IMG/VR virus record: IMGVR_UViG_3300011912_000001
Direction: 5' to 3' (one strand)
Length of the DNA stretch: 64,000 nucleotides
Source: an uncultured virus (IMG/VR IMGVR_UViG_3300011912_000001)
Lineage: Duplodnaviria > Heunggongvirae > Uroviricota > Caudoviricetes
Positions within the stretch are counted from its first letter, which is position 1, and every line of letters starts with the position of its first letter. The translations under genes and the position numbers were made by a program. The notes beneath the pieces were generated by a model. That model was not told the DNA's origin. It did no database searches and was given only the letters and a program-made list of their open reading frames with translations. This document shows, piece after piece, positions 1,465 through 28,300 of this stretch.

Positions 1465-1514
1465 GAAAATCCCTCTTTTCTAAAAAAGTAAGGGAGCGCG
1501 AGGCTCCCTCCTTA

Positions 1515-13201: not shown

Positions 13202-13546
13202 TTAATAGATGTCGATGCCGCCAGTCGTTGTTCGTAAGTTCACAGTAATCGTACCGTACCCATATAACCGCTCAGGCATCATTTTTTGAAGCGTGACGCG
13301 AAATCCTTTCTTTTGAATGGCATGAGGAAGTAAAGAATGTAACCCTTCATCTTTCTCATCAAGCGTTAAGATGTTGAAGCCGAATTCACGAATCTCTTTA
13401 GAATGATACTGACTACAAATCATATTTCGTACCTCGCGGAAAGAACGCTCCCATACATCTTCAATATCCCGAATGGAATCATCTTTCTCTTCGAAAGGAA
13501 CCTCTTCACAGTGTGGAATCAAAGCGAATAGTTCTTCGATAGTCAT
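13202..13546 (-). CDS. hypothetical protein
   Basis: AAGGAGG RBS before MTIEE. Confidence 0.65.
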   Translation of the reverse strand: MTIEELFALIPHCEEVPFEEKDDSIRDIEDVWERSFREVRNMICSQYHSKEIREFGFNILTLDEKDEGLHSLLPHAIQKKGFRVTLQKMMPERLYGYGTITVNLRTTTGGIDIY

Positions 13547-13595
13547 AGTAAATTCCTCCTTAAAATAGTAGTCGCCGCCGAAACCCTCTAAAACC

Positions 13596-13824
13596 AAGAA
13601 CTCTATTAGTAATAATAGTAAGAGTTATTAAGATTAAGAGAGATAATGAATAAGAATTAAATAGAGTAGTAGATAATCAAGTAAAGATTAGAAAGAGTAG
13701 AATACCTGTAAAAACACCTACATTTGATGAAATATGGCTTAGAAACACCTTAATCCTAATAAATATGGTCTAGAAACACTCACATCTGATGAAAAAATAC
13801 CTACATTCCTATAAATATGGTATC
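13596..13824. repeat. AT-rich purine-skewed tract followed by phased direct repeats (AAACACC...AAATATGG), origin- or operator-like
   Basis: repeat units start at 13712, 13743, 13774 and 13795. Confidence 0.7.
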
Positions 13825-13972
13825 ACGCCCCCAAATAATTGGTGGTCAGAGTAGCGTTTCGAAGGATAAGTGGTCAGTCGTTATTCACTGGTATTGTATA
13901 CTTATGCAGAAAGTGTTCAAAATTCCCGGGGTAGTTGCATACCCTTTCTCGTTTATGCAAGATTGTTGCATA

Positions 13973-14167
13973 TTAGGGGGAATCAAAGAAGCGTCGAATA
14001 GCGTTGTGGTGTTTTTGTTTCATGTGTCGGATGCTTTTAGAGAGGTCGACGACGGTGTGCGGGTTCTTGAGGTGACGGGATTTGAGTTTGCGTTTGAGGT
14101 CAGTGTCTTTGTCGGTGACAATGAATCCGCCATGTTTGGTTTTAGAGATGGTATACTTCTTCTTCAT
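13973..14167 (-). CDS. small basic protein
   Basis: AAGGAG RBS; K/R/H-rich, 64 aa. Confidence 0.65.
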   Translation of the reverse strand: MKKKYTISKTKHGGFIVTDKDTDLKRKLKSRHLKNPHTVVDLSKSIRHMKQKHHNAIRRFFDSP

Positions 14168-14181
14168 GGGTTTCTCCTTTC

Positions 14182-14655
14182 TTAGAGAGATAAGTTCGGT
14201 GGTTGTGTGGACTTGAATTCCATGTGAATGGATTTGAAGAAGCGGATGACGGAAGCGTGCTGATATTCTTGCATGGGTAAGAAGTCTTGTAACGCTTCTT
14301 CTAGGTCTTCAAGGGAACGGATGGGCGTGCACCGTTTCATGTCGAGGCGGGCACAGGTAGGAGTTGTTTTTTGTGTTCCGTGTTCGATGCGGGCGAACCG
14401 TTTCTTATCAAAGTGTTCTTCAGAACCAGAGGCATGCATCTGTTTGATGTAGGCAATGAGTTGTTCTTGTTCTTCGATAGTCCCTCTTGTGATACAGAAG
14501 TTTAAGTCAAAGATGTCTTCTGAGTCTCCGGCGAGCACGAGGGTACGGACTTCTTTCTTTGAAGGAATCATCGATTTCTTTTGGATGGTGACGGCGATGT
14601 AACGGGGTTGTCCTAATGGATTCCGGTATAGATAAAAGTCTCCGACTGTGAACAT
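14182..14655 (-). CDS. hypothetical, family A (FTVGDFY start, PNLSL end)
   Basis: start at MFTVGD after AAGGAAG. Confidence 0.72.
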   Translation of the reverse strand: MFTVGDFYLYRNPLGQPRYIAVTIQKKSMIPSKKEVRTLVLAGDSEDIFDLNFCITRGTIEEQEQLIAYIKQMHASGSEEHFDKKRFARIEHGTQKTTPTCARLDMKRCTPIRSLEDLEEALQDFLPMQEYQHASVIRFFKSIHMEFKSTQPPNLSL

Positions 14656-14686
14656 AGTACATCTTCCTTTCTTACGGCTAGAGTTT

Positions 14687-14770
14687 AAAAAAATCCCTAG
14701 AGAAAAGCCATCACGGATGTGTTTCTCCTTTTTTAGAAAAAGTCCCACAGGGAAGCCATCGCGGATGTGT
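14687..14770. repeat. imperfect tandem duplication (48-bp period), each copy ending in a GGATGTGT box
   Basis: aagccatcacggatgtgt at 14705 and aagccatcgcggatgtgt at 14753. Confidence 0.7.
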
Positions 14771-14784
14771 CTAGGTATGTATCA

Positions 14785-14894
14785 TAAAAAGATGGAAACA
14801 GAGCAGACGCTGTCGCGGAATAAGGAGAAGGGGAAGGCTCCTTACGCCGTGACAACGCCCGCTCCGTTGAGGACGCTGAGATAACGAATCAATC
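14785..14894 (-). ncRNA. putative long-hairpin sRNA with C-rich apical loop
   Basis: ~70-nt stem 14798-14867 with G-U pairs on the minus strand; loop CCUUCCCCUU; 3' U tract; lies directly after a hairpin element. Confidence 0.55.
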
Positions 14895-14920
14895 AAAAGA
14901 AGAGGGGCGTAGCCCCCCGC
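14891..14920 (-). promoter_or_regulatory. hairpin promoter-like element
   Basis: AATCA-N9-GGGC-GTA-GCCC-CCCGC. Confidence 0.65.
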
Positions 14921-14928
14921 CTTTGACC

Positions 14929-15528
14929 TTAAAACGCTTTGTCGCTGATGATTGGCGGAACCGTTGGAGTCTCCGTCGCACCCGCTGTTTGTTCTTGAAC
15001 CTGAGCTTGCGCTTGCGGTTGAACAGCACCAGCGCCACCTGCGCCACCTAGAGCGGCGACGAGGAGGGCGATAGTGTTAGCGTCAAGACCAGCAAGAGCG
15101 GCGAGAGCCGGATTCGCTTGAGCTTGTGCCTGAGCTTGTTGCTCGACAGAAGCTTGTTTACATTTCGAGTGAACATGTTTGAGTACTTGTGCGCGCACCG
15201 ACTGATTCAGACGGTATTCGTCACGGTATTTCTTTTCCCCGTTCTCGATGTACTCACGAGAAGGGAAGACGAGCCGGACAGAGTTCGCGTCTTGTTTCCC
15301 ACGGAAAGCTGAGAAGTAGAACGAACCAACGACAGTGTGCAATTGTACCTGACCGATGACACCGGATTTCGCTTGCGCCTCAGAAGAAGCTGGAACGATG
15401 ACGATGTTTTCGATACCTAGGTCAGCGTTAGAAGAAGCGTCTGTAGACTTTTCGTCTTGAAGATACCAGAGCGGTCCTTTTGTGTCGTTGACTTTCGATT
15501 GGTCGAGTACGAGTCCTTGGATTTGCAT
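14929..15528 (-). CDS. SpoVG-like nucleic-acid-binding protein with Q/A/G-rich tail
   Basis: VRLVFPSREYIENGEKKYRD resembles the SpoVG core. Confidence 0.55.
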   Translation of the reverse strand: MQIQGLVLDQSKVNDTKGPLWYLQDEKSTDASSNADLGIENIVIVPASSEAQAKSGVIGQVQLHTVVGSFYFSAFRGKQDANSVRLVFPSREYIENGEKKYRDEYRLNQSVRAQVLKHVHSKCKQASVEQQAQAQAQANPALAALAGLDANTIALLVAALGGAGGAGAVQPQAQAQVQEQTAGATETPTVPPIISDKAF

Positions 15529-15612
15529 GAGTAATTCCTCCTTTTAACGTCACGTGGACAATTTGTGTACCCAGAAGAACTCCCGTCACCAAAAAGGATG
15601 GAGTGTTCTCTG

Positions 15613-15642
15613 AATCAAGAAAAGAAGGGCGTAGCCCCCCGC
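15613..15642 (-). promoter_or_regulatory. hairpin promoter-like element
   Basis: AATCA-N9-GGGC-GTA-GCCC-CCCGC. Confidence 0.65.
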
Positions 15643-15671
15643 CTTTAAAAGGTTTTAGGGTTTTCCGCTTT

Positions 15672-15733
15672 TCCCTGCCATCATCAGACCTACGGAGGGT
15701 ACCCGTAGATGACGTCTCTCGACGTTTCGGCAT
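15672..15733 (-). ncRNA. type II hammerhead ribozyme
   Basis: UGCC-GAAA-CGUC(GAGA)GACG-UC^AUCUACGG(GUACCCU)CCGUAGGU-CUGAUGA-U-GGCA-GGG; predicted cleavage between 15711 and 15710. Confidence 0.85.
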
Positions 15734-15735
15734 GT

Positions 15736-15765
15736 AATCATTAAAAGAAGGACGTAGTCCCCCGC
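15736..15765 (-). promoter_or_regulatory. hairpin promoter-like element (compensatory stem GGAC/GTCC)
   Basis: AATCA-N9-GGAC-GTA-GTCC-CCCGC. Confidence 0.65.
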
Positions 15766-15767
15766 TC

Positions 15768-15983
15768 TTAAAGGTTTTCATAAAGAATGGAGCCAAAAAA
15801 GACAGTAGCGAATACTGTCATACCAATGCATTTCATCATTTCTTCGAAAGCAAAAGAGCGTTTGACGGTGTCTTTCGAGTATCGGACGCGCCACCACTTG
15901 CCTATGACAATCAAGGTTAAGCGCCACATGTTTAATAACACTACGGCATAGAATGTGACGAATAGGACCGCTAAGATGGACAT
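15768..15983 (-). CDS. small two-TM membrane protein
   Basis: two hydrophobic stretches; RBS AGGAGG. Confidence 0.65.
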   Translation of the reverse strand: MSILAVLFVTFYAVVLLNMWRLTLIVIGKWWRVRYSKDTVKRSFAFEEMMKCIGMTVFATVFFGSILYENL

Positions 15984-15994
15984 GAGGTTTCCTC

Positions 15995-16180
15995 CTACAT
16001 TTGACTGACTTTGTAGATAAAGATGATGCCGATGGCCATGACGCCACCCCATAGCAGAGAGTGGTCGATGACCCGTCTATCGATGTAAGCAATCTTCAAG
16101 AACAATGCCCCTAGAGCGATGATGCATAAACCGATAAGATACAAGAATGATTTGACGAGTTCTAGTTCATCTGATGCCAT
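15995..16180 (-). CDS. small two-TM membrane protein
   Basis: two hydrophobic stretches; RBS AAGGAGG. Confidence 0.65.
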   Translation of the reverse strand: MASDELELVKSFLYLIGLCIIALGALFLKIAYIDRRVIDHSLLWGGVMAIGIIFIYKVSQM

Positions 16181-16232
16181 GGGGATGACCTCCTTATATG
16201 TAAGGGGAGCGGGCTCGTACTCCCCGCGTACC

Positions 16233-16793
16233 TTACGCTTTTACTTCAGAAGTTTCCGCTTCTGCTTGTTTCGCTTCGAAATTTTGATTGAGCACAGAAA
16301 GCAATGATGCCATTTGCGTGCCTAGTTCTTGGAGCGTTTGTTCGTTACGAGCCATGCGTTCTTGCATGCTGTTGTCACCCGTCAGACCTTCCGGTAATTG
16401 GATGTTGATGACCGGTTGTTGGTCGGGTTTAACCGTAGAGCGTGGGTCGACTGGGTCTGCACCCATGAAGCGACGAGCCTTCTCTAAGAGAGAACCGTTC
16501 GCATACTGGTGTTCCCGGTGCTCATACGCTTGGACTTTCTTCTCGAAGTTGCGGGCTTCTTGTTTCATGCCGGCGACTTCGACAGCAGAGTGCTGGACGT
16601 CTTGGAGTTCAAGACCAATGTGAGAAGCAATTTGTTGCAAGAGGATGGCATGTCCTGCCATGTCCACTTTCAGGTTCGAGATTTCATCGTTGAAGACAGT
16701 TTTCGATACCGGGAGCATGCCACCGACACGTTGGATTAAAGGCTTGTCCTGAGGACGCTGATAATATTCTTGTACGAATTGGTTGAGTTGCAT
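16233..16793 (-). CDS. coiled-coil hypothetical protein
   Basis: ORF with RBS. Confidence 0.7.
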   Translation of the reverse strand: MQLNQFVQEYYQRPQDKPLIQRVGGMLPVSKTVFNDEISNLKVDMAGHAILLQQIASHIGLELQDVQHSAVEVAGMKQEARNFEKKVQAYEHREHQYANGSLLEKARRFMGADPVDPRSTVKPDQQPVINIQLPEGLTGDNSMQERMARNEQTLQELGTQMASLLSVLNQNFEAKQAEAETSEVKA

Positions 16794-16827
16794 GGGATAA
16801 CTTCCTTTCTAATGTGGGAGTAGTGAG

Positions 16828-16857
16828 CCCTATAAGAAGGAGGGCGTAGCCCCCCGC
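16828..16857 (-). promoter_or_regulatory. hairpin promoter-like element (CCCTA in place of AATCA)
   Basis: GGGC-GTA-GCCC-CCCGC. Confidence 0.55.
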
Positions 16858-16875
16858 TCTTAAGGTTTTAAGGTC

Positions 16876-16980
16876 TTAATGAAAAGCGAACGATAAAGTA
16901 AAGTACGCCATCGCTAATAAGCCGACGGCGATACTGATACTTTCCATGATATCGTGATAATGCGGATGTTTGCGTTTCAT
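16876..16980 (-). CDS. 34-aa membrane peptide (not in ORF track)
   Basis: MKRKHPHYHDIMESISIAVGLLAMAYFTLSFAFH; TGATG coupling with the upstream gene. Confidence 0.45.
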   Translation of the reverse strand: MKRKHPHYHDIMESISIAVGLLAMAYFTLSFAFH

Positions 16981-17348
16981 CACTGCACCACCGTCAGGAC
17001 TTTGTTGATAGCCCCTAGACGATAGCCTTGCGTGCCATCATTACGGACGTTGCCGTATGGGATGGTATTGCGGACATCAAAGCAATCGATGCAGATGTTG
17101 CCGTCATCACTGTAGACGCGGGCGAGGGCACACGTGTTCATGAATGGATTGACGACAGCATAGCTCGTGTTGTTTGGAAGGTCGAAGGCTTCCGGTGCAG
17201 TCAGCTGTAAGTCCGCCACGATTTCATAGACGCTTAACCCAAACTCTTTGATTTTAGAAAGGACAGTGGGAGTGGCGCCGACGATGACGTCTTGCCCCTC
17301 GATTGTCATAGTATCCTCGAAGTTAAAATGTTTGATAGACGTAGTCAT
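16980..17348 (-). CDS. hypothetical protein
   Basis: AAGGAG RBS. Confidence 0.7.
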   Translation of the reverse strand: MTTSIKHFNFEDTMTIEGQDVIVGATPTVLSKIKEFGLSVYEIVADLQLTAPEAFDLPNNTSYAVVNPFMNTCALARVYSDDGNICIDCFDVRNTIPYGNVRNDGTQGYRLGAINKVLTVVQ

Positions 17349-17385
17349 GATAATAGTCTCCTTTTTGTATGCGATTGAGTTATGG

Positions 17386-17889
17386 TCATTGAGTGACGCG
17401 ATGGCTTTCCACGTAGGTCTTCCACGGGAAAGTATAGCCGGGTTTCTTATTCAGGATGAGCCCACTGTAAGCGTCTTTCTGGGTTCCGTCCCATAACCAG
17501 AGTATCCAGTCACTTTCATGGATGAGCGTCCGGTTTCGTTGGTTGAGCATTTGGTATTGGTCAGAGGTCGGGTTGTCATGGATATAGAGGGCTTGCCCCC
17601 GAAGTTCCAGTTGTTCCCGCACCTTCCGCCAATCTTCTCCCTGTTTATGCCCGAAGCCCGGGAAAGGTAAGATGAGCTGAATCTGGTCGGCGTATCCGTT
17701 ATAGAATAACCATTTCATGGCACGACTGTCCCAGTGGTCCGCACACCCGATTAAGAACGTATGTCCTTGGGGTGCAAGAGCACTGAGGATGTCTTCTTGC
17801 CACTTCCAGATATCATCAAGCTTTGGGCTGTTGCGGTTGTAGTACGGATGGTGTTTCCGCATCCGCATGCCGATGACACCAATTTTCAA
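17386..17889 (-). CDS. YspA-like (DUF1273) SLOG-family protein
   Basis: KIGVIG.R, G.ADHWD, LILPF, QRNRTLIHESD.IL.LWDG. Confidence 0.7.
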   Translation of the reverse strand: MKIGVIGMRMRKHHPYYNRNSPKLDDIWKWQEDILSALAPQGHTFLIGCADHWDSRAMKWLFYNGYADQIQLILPFPGFGHKQGEDWRKVREQLELRGQALYIHDNPTSDQYQMLNQRNRTLIHESDWILWLWDGTQKDAYSGLILNKKPGYTFPWKTYVESHRVTQ

Positions 17890-18203
17890 GGGGTTTCACC
17901 TGCCTCTGCCTTCCATGAAATAAGAAGATGCGCGGGATGCGTTTGATGGACAGTGAACCCACGATAGGTCAATTGTTCCATAATGGCTTCATCGTAAGCA
18001 TGAATGTTTGAGAAAAGGAATTCATAGTCAGACAATGAGATATGGTGCGAGTATAAGCCTCGTGCGGCACGTGGCATGCAGTCCGCTATCATCTCTTCTG
18101 CGGCGTTGATGATTTTTACATTGAGTACGGCGTCCTCATGTTGTTTCTGAAGATTCCGTTCGTTTGCCATAAAACGAAAGATTTCTGCTTCTGTAGACAT
18201 CAT
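17886..18203 (-). CDS. hypothetical, family C
   Basis: AARG, RGFTV, LLISW. Confidence 0.7.
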   Translation of the reverse strand: MMSTEAEIFRFMANERNLQKQHEDAVLNVKIINAAEEMIADCMPRAARGLYSHHISLSDYEFLFSNIHAYDEAIMEQLTYRGFTVHQTHPAHLLISWKAEAGETP

Positions 18204-18221
18204 GGATATCTCTCCTCTCAT

Positions 18222-18252
18222 AATCAAGAACAGGAGGGCGTACGCCCCCCGC
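18222..18252 (-). promoter_or_regulatory. hairpin promoter-like element (GTAC loop)
   Basis: AATCA-N9-GGGC-GTAC-GCCC-CCCGC; RBS begins a few nt downstream. Confidence 0.65.
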
Positions 18253-18261
18253 TCTTTGTTC

Positions 18262-18621
18262 TTAGAATTGGGAGGAAGCGCGTATGACCGCACCCAATTC
18301 TTTGAAGACTTCTTCGAGTTCATCAGGTGTCCAATCAACATGTAAGAAGATAGAACCGGTATGGTTGTCAAGGATGACATGGGCTTTGTAGTCGAACTTA
18401 CGGAGTTCCAGCGCAACCGCCTCTAAGTTTCCTAAGCTTGCGAAGAAGTTGTTGTCAAAAGGCAAATCGCTGATAGGAACTTTCACATAGGTCATCCCTT
18501 TATTGGCTTCTGTTTCAATTAAGCCGGCAAGAGCCGTGACGATTCTTTTGGTAGCAATTTGTTTGGCACGTCGTTTCGTAGCTTCCTGTGTGATGGTGTA
18601 CATTTCCTGTGCGTTTTTCAT
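18262..18621 (-). CDS. hypothetical, family C
   Basis: MKNAQEM, EANKG, FDYKA, LHVDW. Confidence 0.7.
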   Translation of the reverse strand: MKNAQEMYTITQEATKRRAKQIATKRIVTALAGLIETEANKGMTYVKVPISDLPFDNNFFASLGNLEAVALELRKFDYKAHVILDNHTGSIFLHVDWTPDELEEVFKELGAVIRASSQF

Positions 18622-18661
18622 GAGTATCTCCTCCTTTGGGTATGTAAGAGCCAGAAGGCTC

Positions 18662-18967
18662 TTATTGGAACTGGGCTTCGTATTCCTCCTGTAGCGCATT
18701 GACCTTGATAGGGTCGAGCGGAAGAATCTCTGGAAGCAACGGCGTATGACTATAGTCAATCGTGTACGCCAATTGCATTTCCAAGATACGAGCTTTGGCG
18801 ACAGCCGAATACAACCGCTGTTCACTGTTCATACGAATGAAGTCTTGATTCTTCGCAATGAGGTCATTGACAAGACCGTTGACGACAGAGGCTAACCCGA
18901 CAGTGATGTCATCGAACTTCTTTGTGTTGTTGAGGATGTGCTGATACGCGTAGATTTGTTCTTCCAT
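18662..18967 (-). CDS. hypothetical protein
   Basis: ORF with RBS. Confidence 0.7.
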   Translation of the reverse strand: MEEQIYAYQHILNNTKKFDDITVGLASVVNGLVNDLIAKNQDFIRMNSEQRLYSAVAKARILEMQLAYTIDYSHTPLLPEILPLDPIKVNALQEEYEAQFQ

Positions 18968-19011
18968 GGATAATCTTCCTTTCTATAAGGTGAATGGCTA
19001 CAGGCACTGAG

Positions 19012-19041
19012 AATCATTAAGAGGAGGGCGTAGCCCCCCGC
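19012..19041 (-). promoter_or_regulatory. hairpin promoter-like element
   Basis: AATCA-N9-GGGC-GTA-GCCC-CCCGC. Confidence 0.65.
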
Positions 19042-19051
19042 CCTTTATCTT

Positions 19052-19255
19052 TTAAAAGAATAGATTAAGGAATAGAATGCCGAAGAATAAAACGAATTGA
19101 AGTAAGAGATTGAATCGCTGGACCTTCAAGTTCCCTTTAAGTTGTTGGCTGGTCCCATGCTCTTGAATGAGCCGAAGGGCTTTGCGGTAATTGTGTATGC
19201 TTACAATGAGGCATACGAACAACACTACTAAACAAATGATGGTGAAAGTAGACAT
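19052..19255 (-). CDS. small two-TM membrane protein
   Basis: hydrophobic ends; AAGGAGG RBS. Confidence 0.65.
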   Translation of the reverse strand: MSTFTIICLVVLFVCLIVSIHNYRKALRLIQEHGTSQQLKGNLKVQRFNLLLQFVLFFGILFLNLFF

Positions 19256-19256
19256 T

Positions 19257-19302
19257 GGATGTGTCCTCCTTTTGGATGTGTGTTCTCACTGGAGATGTGT
19301 GT
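19257..19302. promoter_or_regulatory. three GGATGTGT boxes (17/19-bp spacing)
   Basis: boxes at 19257, 19274 and 19293. Confidence 0.55.
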
Positions 19303-19306
19303 CCAT

Positions 19307-19331
19307 AAAAAAAGAGAGCCCGAAGGCCCTC
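19307..19331 (-). terminator. intrinsic terminator, cUUCGg loop
   Basis: GAGGGCC-UUCG-GGCUCUC-U7. Confidence 0.85.
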
Positions 19332-19617
19332 AATATTGTTTGAACTTAGCGTGCGTAATCATCATGTTGATGTCTTTACCTTCATGCTCATAATGAACAT
19401 CAAACCCATAAGGAATCTTATAGAAGACCTTTTCTTCTGGGTCGACAGAGACTTCGTAAAGACGCTGACCTTCGTTGTTGAAGGTAACGAGACGAATCGC
19501 GGTGATGCCCTCGTAACGGACACCATCAGCGTAGATAGCAGAGTATTCGCGCGTCTCCGTCGTATCTTCATGTGGAAGTGGTTTGATAGTAGTAGTTGGT
19601 TGGATGACAGGGTTCAT
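19330..19617 (-). CDS. hypothetical protein
   Basis: GAGGAGG RBS before MNPVI. Confidence 0.65.
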   Translation of the reverse strand: MNPVIQPTTTIKPLPHEDTTETREYSAIYADGVRYEGITAIRLVTFNNEGQRLYEVSVDPEEKVFYKIPYGFDVHYEHEGKDINMMITHAKFKQY

Positions 19618-19889
19618 GCTATTGCCTCCTCTAGGATATGGAATGTGACAATACGTTTTGATGGAATGCATGTTTCATTATATTTAACGACAGCTTCATC
19701 GAGAGGCGTGTGCCGTGTATCGACATTCCCCGCAATCGATTGCTGGCTTAAGACTTTCTTCTCAAAGTCAAAAGCGTTGATGCACGAGATATTGTTATTA
19801 ACGAATACCCCGCGCTGACCATTTTCTAACATAACTTCGACGAGCGGACGTTCTACCATTTTAGAAGAATGCGTGTCATAGAATAACAT
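19614..19889 (-). CDS. hypothetical protein
   Basis: translationally coupled on both sides. Confidence 0.6.
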   Translation of the reverse strand: MLFYDTHSSKMVERPLVEVMLENGQRGVFVNNNISCINAFDFEKKVLSQQSIAGNVDTRHTPLDEAVVKYNETCIPSKRIVTFHILEEAIA

Positions 19890-20074
19890 TAGATAGCCCC
19901 CAATTGTTTAAGAGTTTTTTTGAAACCAGCTTGACGTGCTTCGTACTGTTTCGTGAGCTCATCAATCTGAGCGTCGGTCTTCCGTTTTTCTTGGACAATC
20001 GAGTAAGCGGCGACATACATCGCAAACGTATAGAGAATAGCACCTTTAAGTAATAATTTACCAACTTTTTTCAT
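19889..20074 (-). CDS. small membrane-anchored protein
   Basis: one TM helix followed by a coiled coil. Confidence 0.6.
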   Translation of the reverse strand: MKKVGKLLLKGAILYTFAMYVAAYSIVQEKRKTDAQIDELTKQYEARQAGFKKTLKQLGAI

Positions 20075-20088
20075 AATGAATCGCTCCC

Positions 20089-20268
20089 TTAGAATAATGT
20101 ATTTAAAACGAAGATAAGACCGCCGACACCGACGAAGAAACTAGAGAAGGCTAACTTGAAACAATCGCGAAGCAGAAGGTACCGCGCAATATACGCGATA
20201 CCGACGACGTACGCACAAAACACGAGATACATGGATGCCATCATGAAGAAAAGCAATTGGTCGTTCAT
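20089..20268 (-). CDS. small two-TM membrane protein
   Basis: hydrophobic; RBS GAGGAGG. Confidence 0.6.
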   Translation of the reverse strand: MNDQLLFFMMASMYLVFCAYVVGIAYIARYLLLRDCFKLAFSSFFVGVGGLIFVLNTLF

Positions 20269-20591
20269 TTGCTTTCCTCCTCTAGGCGCCACGCTTGAGC
20301 ATATTTCTGATACTCACGAGCAACGTCTTCCCGTTTGCATGTTGCAAGTTCAACCGTATGCCAAAACTGTTTTCCTTGATAAGCCAACTTCACATCTTGC
20401 GTGATGACAGCCATATCCGTGTTCATCGTCATTTTCGGGCATAACCGTTTGATGACATGACAGCGGTGAGGCTTATCCGCTGAAGGTGGGGATTCGATGA
20501 ATTCCCCAGTTGCCGGGTTAACATTGGATGTGTATTTCCCCCGACGGAAGAATTTGTCCATTTCGACTTCCCGTTCAATTTGTTCATACAT
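20265..20591 (-). CDS. hypothetical protein
   Basis: AAGGAG RBS. Confidence 0.65.
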   Translation of the reverse strand: MYEQIEREVEMDKFFRRGKYTSNVNPATGEFIESPPSADKPHRCHVIKRLCPKMTMNTDMAVITQDVKLAYQGKQFWHTVELATCKREDVAREYQKYAQAWRLEEESK

Positions 20592-20620
20592 GTGAATCGC
20601 TCCTTTTCATATAAAGTTGT

Positions 20621-20651
20621 AATCAAAGAAAGGAGGGCTGTAGCCCCCCGC
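20621..20651 (-). promoter_or_regulatory. hairpin promoter-like element (TGTA loop)
   Basis: AATCA-N9-GGGC-TGTA-GCCC-CCCGC. Confidence 0.65.
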
Positions 20652-20653
20652 TT

Positions 20654-20836
20654 TTAATCTTGTTGATGCAGTTGTTCGAACCGAAGCGCTTGCTCCGCTT
20701 GTGCCTGTGTTTTATAGTAGCCGGACTGACGGTCATAGGGAACATCGAAGACCATGCCATCGACTTCATCTTCGCATGTCCGTCCAAGGTAATAACCAGC
20801 ATTAGAATGTAAAACTTGTAGTTCAGAAATGTTCAT
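20654..20836 (-). CDS. small conserved-looking protein (SNAGYYLG ... SGYY)
   Basis: 60 aa; RBS AAGGGGAG. Confidence 0.65.
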   Translation of the reverse strand: MNISELQVLHSNAGYYLGRTCEDEVDGMVFDVPYDRQSGYYKTQAQAEQALRFEQLHQQD

Positions 20837-20862
20837 GTAAATCTCCCCTTTGCATAGATTAG

Positions 20863-20893
20863 AATCAAGAGCAGAAGGCCGTATGGCCCCCGC
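20863..20893 (-). promoter_or_regulatory. hairpin promoter-like element (compensatory GGCC/GGCC stem)
   Basis: AATCA-N9-GGCC-GTAT-GGCC-CCCGC. Confidence 0.65.
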
Positions 20894-20906
20894 CCTTCAT
20901 CATAAA

Positions 20907-20968
20907 GGATATGTATAGCAATTGGATATGTATAGCCGAAGGATGTGTGTGGCTACTGGGGATGTGTT
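20907..20968. promoter_or_regulatory. four GGATRTGT boxes (17/17/19-bp spacing)
   Basis: boxes at 20907, 20924, 20941 and 20960. Confidence 0.6.
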
Positions 20969-20975
20969 CGGGATT

Positions 20976-21000
20976 AAAAAAAAAGGAGCCCGAAGGCCCC
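20976..21000 (-). terminator. intrinsic terminator, cUUCGg loop
   Basis: GGGGCC-UUCG-GGCUCC-U9. Confidence 0.85.
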
Positions 21001-21001
21001 A

Positions 21002-21280
21002 TTAACGCCAAGAACCAACAGGATTACCATGGTAAACGTCCCATGCGTCCATATAGGATTCATCGTATTCATCATGTGTACCGACCATGGATTCAACAGC
21101 AGTAATTGCCCATGTTCCCATTGCCCCAAAATGAGGATACCCGGGAACAAGTAATTCAGATTTATAAGACAGAAGAGCAGGATGTTGATTAGTTAAAGCA
21201 TTTGCCCGGTGGGCATCAACCAGTGTATTAATAGATAGAGCCAAGCGATGTAAACCATCAGAATAATCATATTGTAACAT
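21002..21280 (-). CDS. hypothetical protein
   Basis: likely start MLQYD, downstream of the hairpin element at 21311. Confidence 0.55.
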   Translation of the reverse strand: MLQYDYSDGLHRLALSINTLVDAHRANALTNQHPALLSYKSELLVPGYPHFGAMGTWAITAVESMVGTHDEYDESYMDAWDVYHGNPVGSWR

Positions 21281-21310
21281 TTGAACCATTCCCTTCAGTA
21301 TGAGATTATC

Positions 21311-21341
21311 AATCATATGTAGAAGGGCGGTAGCCCCCCGT
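21311..21341 (-). promoter_or_regulatory. hairpin promoter-like element (GGTA loop)
   Basis: AATCA-N9-GGGC-GGTA-GCCC-CCCG. Confidence 0.65.
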
Positions 21342-21387
21342 TTTAACATTAAATATTTACTATGTGCCGGAGGGTGAGTAAGCCCCC

Positions 21388-21419
21388 GGTCACACAATAT
21401 CCACTGGCGTAGCCCCCGC
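21388..21419 (-). promoter_or_regulatory. degenerate hairpin element
   Basis: GGC-GTA-GCC-CCCGC; AATCA absent. Confidence 0.35.
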
Positions 21420-21687
21420 ACTCCTGCGCGAGACTACACCTAAATCCCTCCTACCCGGTGGAACGGGGGAGACCTAACAATTAAGGGTAAAGCTTATGCC
21501 TCCATCAACTCCCCTGTTAGGAAGAGAGTTGATGTGTGTTGGAGGACTTGTGAACCCCTGACCGAACTCACCCCCAACACATAGGAGTGAGCACAGGAAG
21601 TCCGCCCTTTTGCTCTGAAGAAATCCAATGAGGAGTGGGCGGACTTCTATACCCGAAGGTACATCAGTTCGCATACCTCATTGAATC
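21420..21687 (-). ncRNA. putative structured ncRNA (~265 nt, at least 4 hairpins, 2 possible pseudoknots)
   Basis: UUCG hairpin 21649-21662; 11-bp stem 21597-21607/21637-21647; 9-bp stem 21503-21511/21526-21534; two 8-nt loop complementarities. Confidence 0.6.
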
Positions 21688-21714
21688 AACAAAAGAAGGG
21701 CGTATGCCCCCCGC
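21684..21714 (-). promoter_or_regulatory. hairpin promoter-like element (GTAT loop)
   Basis: AATCA-N9-GGGC-GTAT-GCCC-CCCGC. Confidence 0.65.
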
Positions 21715-21734
21715 CTTTTGCTTTTGAACTTGCC

Positions 21735-21977
21735 CTAAAAGAAGGGCAATCCATTGTCCTCTTTCGGAGGAACGAATGGTTTTTTCTTTAACCGCTCTTG
21801 CAAGCGGCGGTCGTCGGCTTCAAATGCCAACTGTACACGTTTCCGGGAAATGGCTCCCCGGTATTCCGCGTACATTCCGTTCAATTGGTGCAAGGACTTA
21901 CTTTCGTACCAGTGTAACGGGTACGGTAATACCAAACGCAATAAAGAAACAATAAACTCTCGTGACATCGTTGTCAC
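21735..21977 (-). CDS. small basic protein ending DNGLPFF
   Basis: AAAGGAG RBS; SSB-tail-like terminus. Confidence 0.6.
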   Translation of the reverse strand: MTTMSREFIVSLLRLVLPYPLHWYESKSLHQLNGMYAEYRGAISRKRVQLAFEADDRRLQERLKKKPFVPPKEDNGLPFF

Positions 21978-21993
21978 TCCTTTCTAGTTGTAG

Positions 21994-22023
21994 TACCTAA
22001 GCAAGATGGCCGTAGGCCCCCGC
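21994..22023 (-). promoter_or_regulatory. hairpin promoter-like element (GGCC-GTA-GGCC)
   Basis: compensatory stem; CCCGC flank; ACCTA in place of AATCA. Confidence 0.5.
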
Positions 22024-22090
22024 CTGTAAGGGTTTAAAACCCCTAGCCGAAGGCCCAATAGCCAACCGTATAGAAAAAGGGTGCCCACTC

Positions 22091-23179
22091 TTAATGAGTC
22101 GGCGCCCCTGTCACCGGTTTCCCTTCTGCCGCCTTCTTCACGTGCGTCGGGCGGTAATCATTGCCATCTCCCGGTTTCGAGAGACGTTGAAGCCCACCAC
22201 CGACTTCGACGGCAAGTGTCCATGGGCAGATTTGCACACACAGAGACTTGTCTTTGTACAGTGGTGTTGTCGCATCCTGCATCTTAAATGGAGAGATGCG
22301 AACATAGCCGTTGGTATCCTTCGCCACCGCACGACGGACAGCGAAAGCATTCCCCTCGACCATTACTACGCGCGTTGCAATCTTGCGTAGTTGTTGTTGC
22401 AACCGATAAGGAGAGTGAATCTTGAACGATTCCTCATACTCTTCGGTTTTGTACTTCTCGAAGTTATTCTTGCCATTAGAGAACAAGACCAACTTCATGT
22501 CTGGGAACTTAACGAGCACACTCTCCCAGATGAGGGGCATCAAGAACTCGATGCCATCTAGCTCTGCTACGTGTAACTCACGGACGCCAGCTTCCGCAAG
22601 TTTCAGAATGCCGGAGTACATGAAGACACGTAGCTTCTCCAAGTACTCTAATGATTGATGCTTATGACTCATTCGGGCACTGTTTAAAATGATACCCGGC
22701 TGAGCTGGACCAGCGATGAAGCCAGTCTGAGGATTCGGTGCCGTTTTCGGTGGCATGTTCTGCTTCACCTTATCGACAACACGAACCTCTTCTTTAATCT
22801 CCAACTTCAAAGGTTGCACCTCCTCTGGAGTTTCTGTTGCAGGTAAGTCTAGAACAAGCCCCTGCATGACTTGTTCCACTACTGGTAGAGCAGGTCGTGC
22901 AACTTCTTTCTTGACTTCCTTAATCTCCTCGTCAGGAGATGGGATTTCAAGAATCAGTGGTGCAACTTCTTCGGTCTCAGGTAATTCGAGAACCAAAGAA
23001 GCGACCTCTTTCTTCTCTGGTAAAATCGGTGTTGCAACAAACTCAGCAAACATTTCGTGTGCTTGCTGTAATTCTTGTTCTGCTAACGCAATGGCTTTTG
23101 CCATTTTGTTAACTTGTGCTTCGAAGTTGACTGCTGTTGCGTTGACTGCATAACGGTTGATTTTGTTTTGGATTTTCAT
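22091..23179 (-). CDS. protein with P/E/L-rich repeats and a divergent YspA/SLOG-like C-terminal domain
   Basis: repeated LVLELP/LILEIP/LVLDLP; LAEAGVRELHVAELDGIEF...KFPDMKLVLF. Confidence 0.6.
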   Translation of the reverse strand: MKIQNKINRYAVNATAVNFEAQVNKMAKAIALAEQELQQAHEMFAEFVATPILPEKKEVASLVLELPETEEVAPLILEIPSPDEEIKEVKKEVARPALPVVEQVMQGLVLDLPATETPEEVQPLKLEIKEEVRVVDKVKQNMPPKTAPNPQTGFIAGPAQPGIILNSARMSHKHQSLEYLEKLRVFMYSGILKLAEAGVRELHVAELDGIEFLMPLIWESVLVKFPDMKLVLFSNGKNNFEKYKTEEYEESFKIHSPYRLQQQLRKIATRVVMVEGNAFAVRRAVAKDTNGYVRISPFKMQDATTPLYKDKSLCVQICPWTLAVEVGGGLQRLSKPGDGNDYRPTHVKKAAEGKPVTGAPTH

Positions 23180-23230
23180 GATTAATTTCTCCTTTTTGTA
23201 TGTGGATTGAGTGACGGACAATGATAAAAC

Positions 23231-23255
23231 AAAAGACCCTCCGAAGAGGGCCTTC
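23231..23255 (-). terminator. intrinsic terminator, UUCG loop
   Basis: GGCCCUC-UUCG-GAGGGUC-UUUUGUUUU. Confidence 0.8.
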
Positions 23256-23260
23256 CTAAA

Positions 23261-25204
23261 TCAGATGACGAAGTTCGTGCCATCGTGACGCATACCGTCA
23301 AGCGATGACAATTCAACATCCGTCGTAAATGCAAGGTGATGCTGTCCACCTAGTACAATATAGACTTGCGTACCAAGTGGTGAGACTTTCATCTCAAACT
23401 CTTGAGTCAGCAATTGCTCCGGTGAATAGGTCTTGAGTGTTGCATCAATCACCGGTGTTGTTGCAAGAACAACAGGCTGTGGTGCCGCTTCTTCGACGTC
23501 TTCAGAAGCTGTGTCGAATAATGCATCAGCTTCTTCGGCAGGGAAAACAAACCCTTCGTCTGATGCATCGAAACCATCCCATACGTCTTGCTCTTCGACT
23601 GGAGCATCGACGACGTTTTCCTTGATGTCTTCCTCTGTAAAGACAGGTGGCTCCTCAACTGCCCGAATGTCGGACAGCTGAAGAGATAGACCTGCTTTTA
23701 CAGTGTTGTTGTAGGCTGTGACTTTCGCCACATACGAACGACCGGCTGGTAGCCACTTCATACGGTCTGCTCGTTTCTGAAGTGGGAAGAACCCACATTC
23801 AAGTTGAATCCCGACTTCGTCATTGACAGTCACAATTTCGATATCTTGATTCAAGATTCCACGTGCTGTGAGTTCAGCATGTGCTGTTGGAACCAATGCC
23901 ATGTTACCTAGCATTGGCTCGAACAAGAAATAGATTGGTTTGCTTGATGGGACGTAAACAGGAAGTTCTCCTTCTTCCCCCATCATTTTCAAAGCAAGGA
24001 CCAAGCCTTGTTCAAATGCATTCCAGAACACTGACAATCCTTCAAGACCGGACTTCTCGATGCTGTACTGCTGAACGTACATGAGCGTTGCCATCTTGAC
24101 GAGACCGTTCTCGATATCTTTCGTCCATTCATGCATCACAGAAGCGAGCTCTGTGTTCATGTCTTGGTTCAAGATAGCCAAGCGGTCTTTCTCAGCCATC
24201 GTCATGGCTTTACGCAACGCCGCGTTGCGCTTACCAGATGTTGTCATCTGGTTGTTCCAAACATCGTGTCCGATGCGAAGGCAATGCTTCTCCTTCAACT
24301 CTTGGAACGTGTAATTGCCCGTTGCTCGGTCTAACTTGAACTGGGCGTCGTTCGTTAAATTACGTTCTCCTAACATTTCTTTCGCACGTGGTTCAATCCC
24401 ACGCTTAAACGCACGGATTTGCTCCATTGCGTTATTCGAGTACGACAAGAGCGTGGCACCACGTTGTAGAAGCAACTCTTTCTCTGCCTCTGGAATTTCA
24501 AGGCGCTCTTCAAGCGCCATGAACTCTGTCAACATGTTCATGGAACGCTTAAAAGTTTGTCCAATTGCTTGAAGCTCACGGATGACGAATCCGCCGAACT
24601 CCGTGGACAACTGCACAGAAGAATGACGACGGACGACGCGTACGCCCGTTTCCATCTTCTGACCAGCAATGAATGCCGGTCGTAAGATGGGCATCTTCTC
24701 TGCTTTCACAGAGAGATGGAAGTCGACACGCTCCATTGTCTCTTGCCAGACGTTGCGATACGTCACACGTTCTTTCGGCTCGACTTCGAGCTGAGAAGTG
24801 CGGCGTACCTGTCCTTTGAAAATTTGGAACGTCACCTCGTCACGGTCTGTTTCCCATGACAAGATGTCGGAGTCGACGTCATTGTGCCACTCCATTTCCC
24901 CAGCTTCTACAAAAGTTTCAACAGCTTTGTAGAAGTCCTTCAAATCTTTTTCCGTTTGACCATGGATGAACTGCATAGTCGGACCAAACTTCGCGCGAAG
25001 TTCGGATAGAGCGACCAATACCAACTGACGTTGTGGCGAAACAACATCAGTATTTTGATACGTTGTTGCTTCCAGTGACGACACCGCCCATGCTTCTCCG
25101 TTTTCGAAGATGTTTTGTACTGCCTGTTGAGCTTCTTCGAGCGACCACACCTTATCAGCAGTGACATTAGTGTTAGTGTTGTTAGTGTTGTTAGTGTTAG
25201 ACAT
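23261..25204 (-). CDS. large hypothetical protein; candidate second (C-terminal) subunit of the RNA polymerase
   Basis: start moved to MSNTNN; adjacent to the RNAP gene; SVFWNAF motif; acidic tail. Confidence 0.6.
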   Translation of the reverse strand: MSNTNNTNNTNTNVTADKVWSLEEAQQAVQNIFENGEAWAVSSLEATTYQNTDVVSPQRQLVLVALSELRAKFGPTMQFIHGQTEKDLKDFYKAVETFVEAGEMEWHNDVDSDILSWETDRDEVTFQIFKGQVRRTSQLEVEPKERVTYRNVWQETMERVDFHLSVKAEKMPILRPAFIAGQKMETGVRVVRRHSSVQLSTEFGGFVIRELQAIGQTFKRSMNMLTEFMALEERLEIPEAEKELLLQRGATLLSYSNNAMEQIRAFKRGIEPRAKEMLGERNLTNDAQFKLDRATGNYTFQELKEKHCLRIGHDVWNNQMTTSGKRNAALRKAMTMAEKDRLAILNQDMNTELASVMHEWTKDIENGLVKMATLMYVQQYSIEKSGLEGLSVFWNAFEQGLVLALKMMGEEGELPVYVPSSKPIYFLFEPMLGNMALVPTAHAELTARGILNQDIEIVTVNDEVGIQLECGFFPLQKRADRMKWLPAGRSYVAKVTAYNNTVKAGLSLQLSDIRAVEEPPVFTEEDIKENVVDAPVEEQDVWDGFDASDEGFVFPAEEADALFDTASEDVEEAAPQPVVLATTPVIDATLKTYSPEQLLTQEFEMKVSPLGTQVYIVLGGQHHLAFTTDVELSSLDGMRHDGTNFVI

Positions 25205-25329: not shown

Positions 25330-28300
25330 TTAGAACATACGACCCATTTTGAAGATACCTGCTTTGATATCTTCGCGGACTTTCGTTGGCGATGGAGCAT
25401 CTGTGAATACGCTGAGCACGTGTGTTAACTCACGAGCGAACGCACCACCGTGTTTTGCTTCATCGATTGCCCAACGGACAACACACGTTAACCATGTTGC
25501 GAGGTCATCGTAGAAACGACCTTCTGCAAGAAGATAACGTTGCTTCTCTGCATGCTGAAGACGAACAGCTAGTTCGTACTCTGCTTGAATCTCAAGCTGA
25601 ATGTCTTCGATGTTCATTAAACGGTTCGTCCACAAACCGATTGATGATGCTTTTGAAGTCTCGACGATGTGGAGTGCCGCCATCCGGTTGAAGACATAGT
25701 ACACGTCTTGTGGACGGTTTAGAACATCTTCTTCGTTGAATTCAAGCTCCCATGTGCGACCGTTGTTGTCTGTACGTTGTACGACTTCAAGGCCTTCTGG
25801 GATATCAACGAAGCGACGTAAATCAACTGCTTCTTTCGGTTCTGACCATGGGCAACCACCTTTTGGAGCAGACGTTCCAGAAAGGTAGAAGTCGAGGATT
25901 GGTGTCTTGTTCTCGAATGGTTCAACCATTAACGAGTTGAAGATGACGAGACACGTATCTCCATCGAAGTCAGCCCCTGACATCGCCTCTGTTGTCATGT
26001 CAACAGAGTTAAACAACACGAGTCCTTTGAAGAAGCCCATTTTCGCGGCTTTCTCATAGTAAGCTCGTGCTTCTTCTGAGCCGAACTTGTCGGTTGCGAA
26101 GACTTTACGAATCTCCTCGCGTTTCAATGCAGGATAACGTGCGGCAATGAACTCTCCTACACGTAAGTTGCCATCTGCATCGACAACGACTGCACAGCCA
26201 GCTGGAATAGACGGTACCCATTCCATCTTCGGTACTGCGACGCCTTCTTTACGTTGACGGTTGATGGACTTCACCGCTGACATCACCATGAAGATGTCAA
26301 AGCCCATATGACGCATTTTAGCGTCGTCAACCAAGACGTTACCTAATACGATTTTCTCAAGTGATTTCGTCAAGAGACTCGCAAGGCGTTGTTTCTGTAC
26401 ACCATCTTTCAGTGCACGTGGTGCTTGTTTGAGAACGGCTTTAACGCCTGTTTCTCCTTCGATGATGTCATTGAACTCTTCGTTCGCATCCAATTCTTCG
26501 AGTTTTGACTCATCGAAGTTGTCTGTAACACCAAGGAGTTTCAAAGCTTTCGATGCAGAGAACAACGATGCTTGAATCCGTCCTTTTGAAATCTGGTGAA
26601 GACGTTTGAGGTTCTTCTTCGGCGTTCCTGTCGCCAAAAGAGCCTGTGTTGCTACAGGCGCGATATCCTCTTTGAACTCTTTACGCGACCCTTGTACGAC
26701 CGCGAACTCGAAGCGTCCTTCGAGCAAAGCAGGAAGCACGTCAAGTTTCAACGCACCAGACATAAGAATCATGTCATATCCTGTTTCTTCTTTAAGCATC
26801 GGTGTACCGTATGCGAACGGTTTAACACCGGCAACACCTCGTCCTTGGAACGATTGTCCTTCATGCTCCAAAATTCCTTCAGCTACAAGGAACTGAGTGA
26901 TTTCAGGAGACACCAAGATACCACCGTCAACGAGGTTCTTTTCGAAGTCTTTTGTAACAGTAGTAATCGCCGGTTTCCCTGTCTTTTCATCCAATTTGTT
27001 GACGACTTTAGCAGTCGCACGAACAAGATGGGTAGGGTCCTCGATGATAAGGATGTTACGTTTGACGCCACCCATCATTTTATTGACAGATGTCAGCTCG
27101 ATTCCCTCTTTATCTTTGTTCTCATCATCTTGATAAGGGAAGCGGTCTGTGATTTCAAGCTGACCGAACAATTTGCCCATCACATTCGATGGACGCGAAC
27201 CAGACGCCGGCATGTCTGTACGCTTAGGGTCTTTATCCATTTTGAAGACCCGTTTGTTCATTGCTTTGTTCAATTTACCGTATTCATGCATACGATACGT
27301 TGCAACAAAGCGGCCATACACCGCAAGCGAACGTGCGGCTTCGTTGAACAAGAGTTTATGCATGTTTGCATACCCTTCTTGCTCTCCGTATTGCCAAAAT
27401 GCCGCCTCTCCCTTACGCGTTTGGGAAGGAGCCGCACTGTTCAAGGTAAAGACCTTGATTTTCTTCTGACTCTCATCAAGCAAGAGAACACCGTTCAAGA
27501 TAGTGTTCTTGATAAGAGCATCAAGCGCATCTTCCGACACTGTGCCAAATTGATTGACGACAGTACTCGATGTGAAGATGTCTGTCAGCTTCTCAACGAC
27601 AAGTGATACTTTGAGGTTGAGTTGCTTTGTGTTGTCATATCCTTCTACTTCTTGGACGATGACATCTTCCCGGTTTAACGGGTCTTTCTTTGTAATAGGG
27701 AATGTCGTTAAGACTTTCGCCGTATCACGGACAAGCATACTTTCACTGTTGCGTTGAACGAGTGTATTCTCGTTCATCACAGAATCTTCTACGCGTGTAG
27801 AACCACGTAGGAACATGAACAATTGAACCGACTCATCGATTGTCAATTGGTTCATATCATCTGTTTTCAACAGGTGCTTGAGTGTTTTAGGCTCAAGACT
27901 CGTGAACTTGCCTTTTGCATCGAAGAATGCAAGATTCACGTTATCAGCTGATAAGTTGAACGACGGTTTCTTCGGACCTGTCGTTTTCTTCAAGCCAGAC
28001 CGTTTGAACAACTCAGCAATAGAGAGTCGTCCTTTCGGTTGTTTTGCTGGTTTCGCTTTCTCAAACTTCGCTTTTGGTGCTTTTGCGAAGAATTGAATAC
28101 GAAGTGCCAACTTGTATTCTGACAAGAAGTTCGGGATTTCAACTTCTGCCATTTGCGTCAACATCAAAAGAAGTTGACGAGCACGTTTTTGAGCCGGTGC
28201 CAAGGCTGTTTGACGTGCTTGTTTGTTGTTTGCACGTCGTTCTTGCTTCTCAGCTGTTTTCATAGCCAAGACTCCTTTCTTAAGCGCTTTCTCTGCGCGG

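Follow-up and report, generated by a model that had tools for sequence, protein, structure and literature searches.

Type II hammerhead ribozymes with the same pseudoknot as the one described here are common in bacteria according to Perreault et al. (2011; PMC3088659), who found many of them near prophage genes, sometimes flanking single genes. Several of their clustered prophage examples cleave in vitro and in E. coli, and shortening the pseudoknot of a construct from 6 to 4 bp lowered the rate about 20-fold. In their proposal, long transcripts of phages would be cut into mRNAs of single-gene length, the function itself being stated there as not established (PMC3088659). In vivo cleavage is reported for three type II hammerheads predicted in D. 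vulgaris close to phage-like genes (PMC8782182), and a 2019 review describes the role as still to be defined (PMC6765202). The hammerhead reported here is genuine and conserved. It adds one more member to the type II family, in a setting that was already familiar: such ribozymes have been on record between phage genes since 2011, and the arrangement at our locus is not new.

The locus belongs to an uncultured virus (IMG/VR record IMGVR_UViG_3300011912_000001), of which a stretch of 64,000 nucleotides, here called the window, was analysed. The gene content of the window is that of a large tailed phage, with portal, capsid and a terminase carrying an intein and a group I intron. The portal protein is 45-46% identical to those of the Bacillus jumbo phages vB_BauM_KLEB27-3 (45%), vB_BceM_WH1 and Edson, and 39.5% identical to the portal of 0305phi8-36, while a DNA comparison of 14900-16300 with GenBank phages gave no match. 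Judging from its sequence, the virus appears to be an uncultured jumbo phage of Bacillus type, and its strong AAAGGAGG ribosome-binding sites suggest, as do its relatives among Bacillus phages, that the host is one of the Bacillota.

Other parts of the window displayed features worth recording. The terminase large subunit gene is apparently interrupted twice (35857-39448, plus strand); it holds an intein with a LAGLIDADG domain in 35857-37596 (PF14890, E 1.9e-20; PF14528) and a group I intron (RF00028, 69.2 bits, 37554-38138) with a 156-aa ORF inside. A 1037-aa protein encoded at 25330-28443 (minus strand) revealed a weak Pfam match to RdRP (PF05183, E 0.0015, below the cut-off), no PDB sequence match and no GenBank phage homologue; the Pfam match may hint at a single-subunit, YonO-like RNA polymerase. 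NAD-salvage-type genes are located at 625-3117 (minus strand), being NAPRTase/NAMPT-like (PF04095, E 1.6e-31; PF18127) and including a weak PRPP synthetase-like match; a run of N at 2351-2486 falls within the NAMPT-like gene, and a second N run is found at 506-515. Three direct repeats of about 27 nt (AAACACCTNNATT...AAATATGG) at 13712-13821 (plus strand), lying between the minus-strand gene 13202-13597 and the plus-strand ORF 13817-14185, may represent promoters or operators.

Read on the minus strand, positions 15732-15672 are UGCC GAAA CGUC GAGA GACG UC / AUCUACGG GUACCCU CCGUAGGU CUGAUGA U GGCA GGGA, with the predicted cut at the slash. An earlier note on this DNA had claimed a complete type II hammerhead on the minus strand, and all elements that it listed are present in the sequence (Table 1). 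The topology is that of type II, since loops cap stems I and III whereas stem II is open and closed by both ends of the RNA. C11.1 (15729) abuts G12, a single U (15680) intervenes between G10.1 (15679) and A9, and the pair table shows A15.1 (15725) pairing with U16.1 (15712), which closes stem III. Stem I comprises 8 bp, or 9 if a G-U pair is counted. Hammerhead cleavage occurs 3' of position 17; the triplet here is GUC (15713-15711), with H17 not being G, and with C17 at 15711 the new 5' end would come to lie at 15710, exactly where it had been placed. In addition, CCCU of loop I can pair with AGGG of the tail (15676-15673), just 3' of stem II, to give a pseudoknot of 4 bp. A pseudoknot of at least four pairs between loop I and the 3' tail occurs in the majority of type II members, not in all of them; here it is found at the family-consensus positions and the pairing is kept in relatives, in agreement with what had been proposed for this locus.

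Table 1. Features of the hammerhead locus and its surroundings (positions refer to the window)
Feature	Position	Strand	Basis
Type II hammerhead ribozyme including 3' pseudoknot tail	15672..15732	-	RF02276 match, descriptor, MFE fold, L017 identity
Stem II, 4 bp, UGCC with GGCA	15732-15729 with 15679-15676	-	Sequence
Core GAAA (G12-A15.1)	15725..15728	-	Sequence and Rfam alignment
Stem III, 5 bp, (A)CGUC-GAGA-GACG(U)	15725-15712	-	Sequence
Predicted cleavage site, after C17 (15711) and before A1.1 (15710)	15710..15711	-	GUC position 3' of stem III
Stem I hairpin, AUCUACGG/CCGUAGGU (15710-15703 / 15695-15688), loop GUACCCU	15688..15710	-	Pair tables
Core CUGAUGA (C3-A9), then extra U at 15680	15681..15687	-	Sequence, Rfam alignment, pair table
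199-aa gene (P0001), 3' of the ribozyme	14929..15528	-	N-terminal domain, Q/A-rich linker, C-terminal tip
Leader motif UGUCCACGYGACRUUAAAAGGAGG, with the 199-aa gene's ribosome-binding site at its end	15537..15560	-	Locus comparison
71-aa hydrophobic protein gene, 5' of hairpin element 1	15768..15983	-	Translation
Terminator-like hairpin element 1 (stem-loop 15763-15747, then UUUUAAUGAUU)	15736..15769	-	Repeat family, terminator-like pattern
Terminator-like hairpin element 2 (stem-loop 15640-15624, then UUUUCUUGAUU)	15613..15646	-	Repeat family, terminator-like pattern

A local Rfam scan of 15500-15900 (401 nt) matched RF02276 (Hammerhead_II) at 15669-15732 on the minus strand with 33.6 bits and an E-value of 3.4e-5 over the full model (1-66), the other three matches listed being weak (E 0.57-3.4). 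The score lies below the Rfam gathering score of 37 bits for RF02276, which is a curators' cut-off and not a biological feature. In the whole-window scans, the only match at gathering was the group I intron, and none of the three matches at E<=1 was a hammerhead. The check with the Rfam Hammerhead_II model that had been suggested for this locus thus came out divided, with a local match on one side and a score under gathering and two whole-window scans without it on the other. Because the Rfam scan filters longer input more strictly, the ribozyme would escape routine annotation.

Our own type II descriptor, in which CUGAUGA and GAAA had to match exactly, the cleavage site had to be U-not-G and the stems had to reach 4, 4 and 3 bp or more, matched a single time in the window, at 15676-15732, and any match at all was obtained in only one of 300 first-order Markov random windows. 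Descriptors for type I and type III hammerheads had no matches in the window. A reading as circular RNA, or as excision by a pair of ribozymes, was considered as well and is ruled out by the single hammerhead copy in the window. The minimum free energy folds of a 181-nt region and of the 67-nt core both correspond to the hammerhead three-way junction; their fold-energy z-scores are ordinary (-1.22 and -1.23, respectively), and the pseudoknot taken on its own lies within chance in the window sequence, 42 of 200 tail shuffles being equally good. A chance origin of the hammerhead motif is unlikely.

The ribozyme is kept at six homologous loci, namely the window, viral contig G001 (locus L017) and four metagenome contigs (L034-L037). 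The search pattern fixed stem I and CUGAUGA and left GAAA, the GCC/GGC of stem II, stem III and the pseudoknot free, so that the constancy of stem I and CUGAUGA across the relatives is uninformative, being imposed by the pattern. Scanning viral contigs gave 17 loci, among them L017 with a near-identical ribozyme, scanning metagenome contigs gave the four further loci, and the same scan of species genomes gave 0 matches. The L017 region is syntenic with the window, with a nucleotide identity of about 70-80% (~72% overall). The relatives match RF02276 at 31.4-34.6 bits, and all six copies, at 31-35 bits, stay below 37. The type II hammerhead model found no match in the five named phage relatives (0/5).

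Though the pattern did not demand them, GAAA and the GCC/GGC of stem II are invariant in all six loci. Stem III changes from ACGUC/GACGU to ACGUCC/GGGCGU and remains fully paired, by a change from U-A to U-G and an added C-G pair. The pseudoknot reads (A)CCCU/AGGG(A) in the window type and GCCUU/AAGGU in L034, L036, and L037, a difference made up of one compensatory double change from C-G to U-A and a new G-U pair. The six loci form only two sequence groups, and the covariation therefore amounts to one or two events. Base pairs were tabulated by script for each locus; a MAFFT alignment misplaces the extra U.

Comparison of the window with L017 revealed how sharply conservation is confined to the RNA motif: 56 of the 57 ribozyme positions (98%) and all four tail positions are identical, against 13 of 25 positions in the spacer (52%, with a 3-nt gap) and 24 of 57 in the leader. 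The ribozyme site is also covered by DNA contigs from four runs of four studies. Two of these contigs are identical to the window over 15599-15747, and the fourth run's contig carries the variant of the L034 type. In the remaining one, from run X6, all 12 differences of a 434-nt piece (15300-15733) fall outside the ribozyme, and 10 substitutions as well as a deletion at 15647-15661, in the spacer, were found.

The window, L017, and L035 carry the extra U between A9 and G10.1, whereas L034, L036, and L037 lack it, a distribution that shows it to be a variant of the lineage, not an error. An insertion of one nucleotide at this place was found in 8 of 24 distinct type II hammerheads parsed from the viral and metagenome loci, a count that includes the window and its two close relatives; the variant is common and not rare. 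The earlier note had stated that natural hammerheads may carry an additional nucleotide here, and this is documented in two families: the (+) hammerhead of CChMVd has A10 at the position, where a U raised trans-cleavage 3-4 fold (PMC3705267), and the hammerheads of Penelope-like elements conserve a nucleotide at the A9/G10.1 place (PMC4209133).

Small minus-strand genes form a run at about 14.2-23.2 kb, and the ribozyme is located within it. Distributed over this array is a 34-nt element with 11 copies in the window (minus strand, AAAGGCGGGGGGCUACGCCCUUCUUUUCUUGAUU), all of them within the minus-strand genes at 14891-22027, and in several copies the next ribosome-binding site follows some 15-40 nt on. 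The two hairpins that flank the ribozyme had been noticed before, and they are indeed members of this repeat; the spacing given for them is correct as well, their starts being 123 nt apart. Element 1 sits 3' of the stop codon of the 71-aa gene. Both consist of a G+C-rich stem-loop directly before a U-rich tract (GGGGGACUACGUCCUUC plus UUUUAAUGAU and GGGGGGCUACGCCCUUC plus UUUUCUUGAU), the U tracts being interrupted. Terminator-like sites are enriched in the region, with 37 in 13500-23500 against 9.4 expected. A second type of terminator, GGGCCUUCGGGCUC followed by an uninterrupted U7-9, occurs twice in the array (19314-19331 and 20985-21000, minus strand).

The stems of the hairpins are near-identical within one genome (GGGGGGC/GCCCUUC in the window), each element ending in a conserved UGAUU, and they differ by paired changes between the relatives L033, L034, L035, and L037 (GGGGGCC/GGCCUCC, GGGGGCU/AGCCUCC, and GGAGGGCC/GGCCUUCC), which looks like concerted evolution of an RNA-level structure. 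The small genes between the elements have been gained and lost among relatives. The conserved UGAUU (TTGATT) after the hairpins was also considered as part of a sigma-70-type promoter; no matching -10 box at 16-18 nt was seen in the copies inspected by eye.

In the window the ribozyme starts 3 nt past hairpin element 1, and across the loci it begins 1-14 nt past the UGAUU that closes the hairpin element. Two arrangements were observed. The window, L017, and L035 display the order upstream gene, hairpin, ribozyme, hairpin, leader, and 199-aa gene. L034 and L037 show two hairpins, then ribozyme, leader, and gene, with no hairpin 3' of the ribozyme, and L036 follows the same hairpin-hairpin-ribozyme order as far as its sequence reaches, 7 nt past a 12-nt tail. 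Hairpin element 2 is accordingly shared by L017 and L035 and missing from L034 and L037. The idea that the ribozyme fills a slot from hairpin to hairpin in which a gene normally sits therefore describes the window, L017, and L035, and fails in L034, L036, and L037, which lack the second hairpin. The feature that stays constant is the ribozyme's association with the downstream gene, with one or more terminator-like hairpins ahead of it, and not a gene-less cassette. No sigma-70-like promoter sites were found on the minus strand from hairpin 1 to the start codon (15770-15528), from which it follows that only read-through transcripts would contain the ribozyme.

A homologue of the 199-aa protein (48-59% amino acid identity, N-terminal domain) follows the ribozyme in all four relatives with downstream sequence, and weak homologues of the 71-aa protein lie upstream in L034, L017, L036, and L035. 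The leader motif is kept in the window, L017, L035, L034, and L037 and is unique within the window. In the predicted leader fold, CUCCAUCCUUUUU (15585-15600) pairs with the ribosome-binding site AAAAGGAGGAAU (15535-15548) on the minus strand, suggesting an anti-Shine-Dalgarno pairing, and the leader stretch UCCUUUUU is kept in L017 and L035; the energy z-score of the leader fold is only -0.29. When viral contigs were searched with the alignment of the 199-aa family, the G001 contig was the only one found, and the search for viral-contig loci with the 199-aa protein alone returned none. The largest contig encoding the protein has 237 kb. WH1 is the only GenBank phage with a detectable homologue, at 33% identity, and the WH1 gene is preceded by an ordinary AT-rich intergenic region.

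The downstream gene had been called SpoVG-like. Pfam assigned no family to the 199-aa protein, PF04026 (SpoVG) was detected in none of the 11 members of its family at E<=1 (0/11), and PDB sequence searches with the protein gave no SpoVG match. An AlphaFold (AF2) model from the 11-sequence alignment has a mean pLDDT of 61.6, with 71-85 in ten-residue blocks over most of residues 21-120 and 68 for 101-110. The top five PDB hits of this model in Foldseek are all SpoVG (2i9z, 2ia9, 2i9x; prob 0.96-0.99, TM by target ~0.6, E 0.03-0.1), and the ESM Atlas agrees, with a structural TM of 0.52 between the protein and a cluster consisting to 99% of PF04026. The name therefore keeps a weak match in the predicted fold of the N-terminal domain and loses the backing of Pfam; the model hints at 'SpoVG-like' as a reasonable lead, and not as family membership. 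The family further shares a low-complexity linker rich in Q and A and, at the C terminus, a conserved VPPIIxDxAF tip. Such an arrangement may be compared with that of bacterial SSB proteins, which have a fold domain, a flexible linker and a short docking tip.

We consider it fairly probable that a functional hammerhead cuts those transcripts that read past the upstream hairpin, and thereby uncouples the message of the 199-aa gene from the upstream one. Transcripts reading through hairpin 1, which ends the 71-aa gene, would make the ribozyme, and the RNA would fold with stems I and III as hairpins, stem II assembled from the two ends and CCCU paired with AGGG. Self-cleavage after C17 would take place 36 nt past the upstream hairpin stem (15747 to 15711). 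The upstream piece would then carry two hairpins at its 3' end, closed by a 2',3'-cyclic phosphate, which amounts to a second termination at the RNA level. The downstream piece would become an mRNA of its own for the 199-aa gene, with a 5'-OH end that is base-paired from the first nucleotide within the stem I hairpin. In this manner the downstream message would be uncoupled from the upstream one in stability and translation. A 5' end paired in a hairpin hinders 5' exonucleases, and any protection of the downstream mRNA would presumably come from this terminal hairpin and not from the 5'-OH. The sequences show the motif, its fold, its conservation, the compensatory change and the link to the gene; cleavage in vivo, read-through and the effect on the fate of the mRNA are the parts of this explanation that we infer.

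Several findings weigh against this explanation. The Rfam match falls short of the gathering threshold and neither whole-window scan lists it, the fold z-scores are ordinary, the pseudoknot has 4 bp and is equalled by 42 of 200 tail shuffles, and the covariation is limited to one or two events by the two sequence groups. Efficient termination at hairpin 1 would leave little ribozyme RNA. None of the five named relatives has a match to the type II hammerhead model, the gene of WH1 following an ordinary AT-rich region instead, and cleavage could even lower the downstream message, as the decay of glmS 5'-OH ends by RNase J1 illustrates.

The hairpin-to-hairpin order of the window could also be read as a gene-less cassette for a small RNA, in which the cut at 15710 and termination at hairpin 2 (~15617) would yield a functional RNA of ~94 nt with a 5'-OH end. 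We regard this as unlikely. Both hairpins fit the terminator-like pattern and the order is kept in three of the six loci (window, L017, L035), as such a cassette would have it; L034, L036, and L037, however, show no hairpin after the ribozyme in the available sequence, which in L036 ends 7 nt past the tail. Moreover, the spacer that would form part of the product is poorly conserved, both against L017 (13/25) and in the X6 contig with its substitutions and deletion, and the ribozyme would be the sole conserved part of such an RNA.

Nor does it seem likely that the ribozyme serves to turn the gene down, with the 5'-OH end degraded by host RNase J1 as in glmS and expression of the 199-aa gene from read-through lowered as a result. 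A precedent exists, since the 5'-OH product of the B. subtilis glmS ribozyme is a substrate of RNase J1 and decays rapidly (Collins et al. 2007, via PMC3328962). The same precedent contradicts the suggestion in the earlier note that a 5'-OH end stabilises the message against RNase J (PMC3328962). A Bacillota host is indicated by the AAAGGAGG ribosome-binding sites and the Bacillus phage relatives. At our locus, however, the 5' end would be paired from nucleotide 1 in a hairpin of 8-9 bp, and without a ligand-sensing domain cleavage would be constitutive, a wasteful way of silencing a conserved gene.

Promoter/stem-loop elements act as recombination-prone cassette boundaries in T4-type phages. 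By analogy, the hairpin repeats might be recombination-prone boundaries that shuffle the hammerhead as a mobile, protein-free cassette, the ~94-nt 5'-OH RNA having a regulatory role of its own; if true, this would explain why the ribozyme precedes the second hairpin in one lineage but follows it in another, although we hold it to be quite improbable. Least credible, and in our view very improbable, is a neutral passenger with no role for the phage, either a relic spread with the hairpin repeats or a chance motif, for although hairpin elements are gained, lost, and reordered among relatives and 0/5 named relatives match the type II model, the core is intact in 6/6 loci while the neighbouring protein has drifted to 48-59% amino acid identity, the pseudoknot has changed in a compensatory manner, the ribozyme is 98% identical next to a spacer at 52%, and both the Rfam E-value (3.4e-5) and the random windows (1/300) make chance unlikely.

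The locus has its value as a natural test case for the role of phage hammerheads, with one ribozyme directly behind a terminator-like hairpin and the same gene always downstream. Tidy natural variants are available in its sister lineages, which may have or lack the extra core U and the second hairpin. The lineage adds bearers of hammerheads among the relatives of the Bacillus jumbo phage 0305phi8-36, and standard Rfam annotation misses the whole of it, the six copies being under 37 bits. Knowledge of hammerheads themselves is unchanged by this finding.

Regarding known systems, RiboJ is an engineered insulator that places a type III satellite hammerhead and a hairpin before a ribosome-binding site. 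Our locus likewise has a ribozyme and then a hairpin before the ribosome-binding site, an order that would fix the downstream 5' end regardless of what lies upstream; the likeness is an analogy of mechanism only, RiboJ being engineered and derived from a type III satellite. With glmS of B. subtilis, the phage RNA has in common that a self-cleaving RNA in a Bacillota-type 5' leader leaves, or here would leave, a 5'-OH on the coding part. The glmS ribozyme, however, has a different fold, needs GlcN6P and leads to decay by RNase J1, whereas the hammerhead is without a sensor domain and its 5' end would be held in a hairpin. The CChMVd (+) and Penelope-like hammerheads carry their inserted nucleotide at the same core position; they are of type III or type I, come from a viroid and from eukaryotic retroelements and stand in an unrelated context, and in the phage lineage, by contrast, only one of the two subgroups has the U. 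Compared with the clustered or gene-flanking type II hammerheads, the window ribozyme is a single copy, and compared with RF02276 it scores below gathering (33.6 against 37) and bears the extra U. In everything else it closely resembles the type II family as described (PMC3088659), sharing its topology, its core, the GUC site, a pseudoknot at the consensus place and an intergenic position in a phage gene array.
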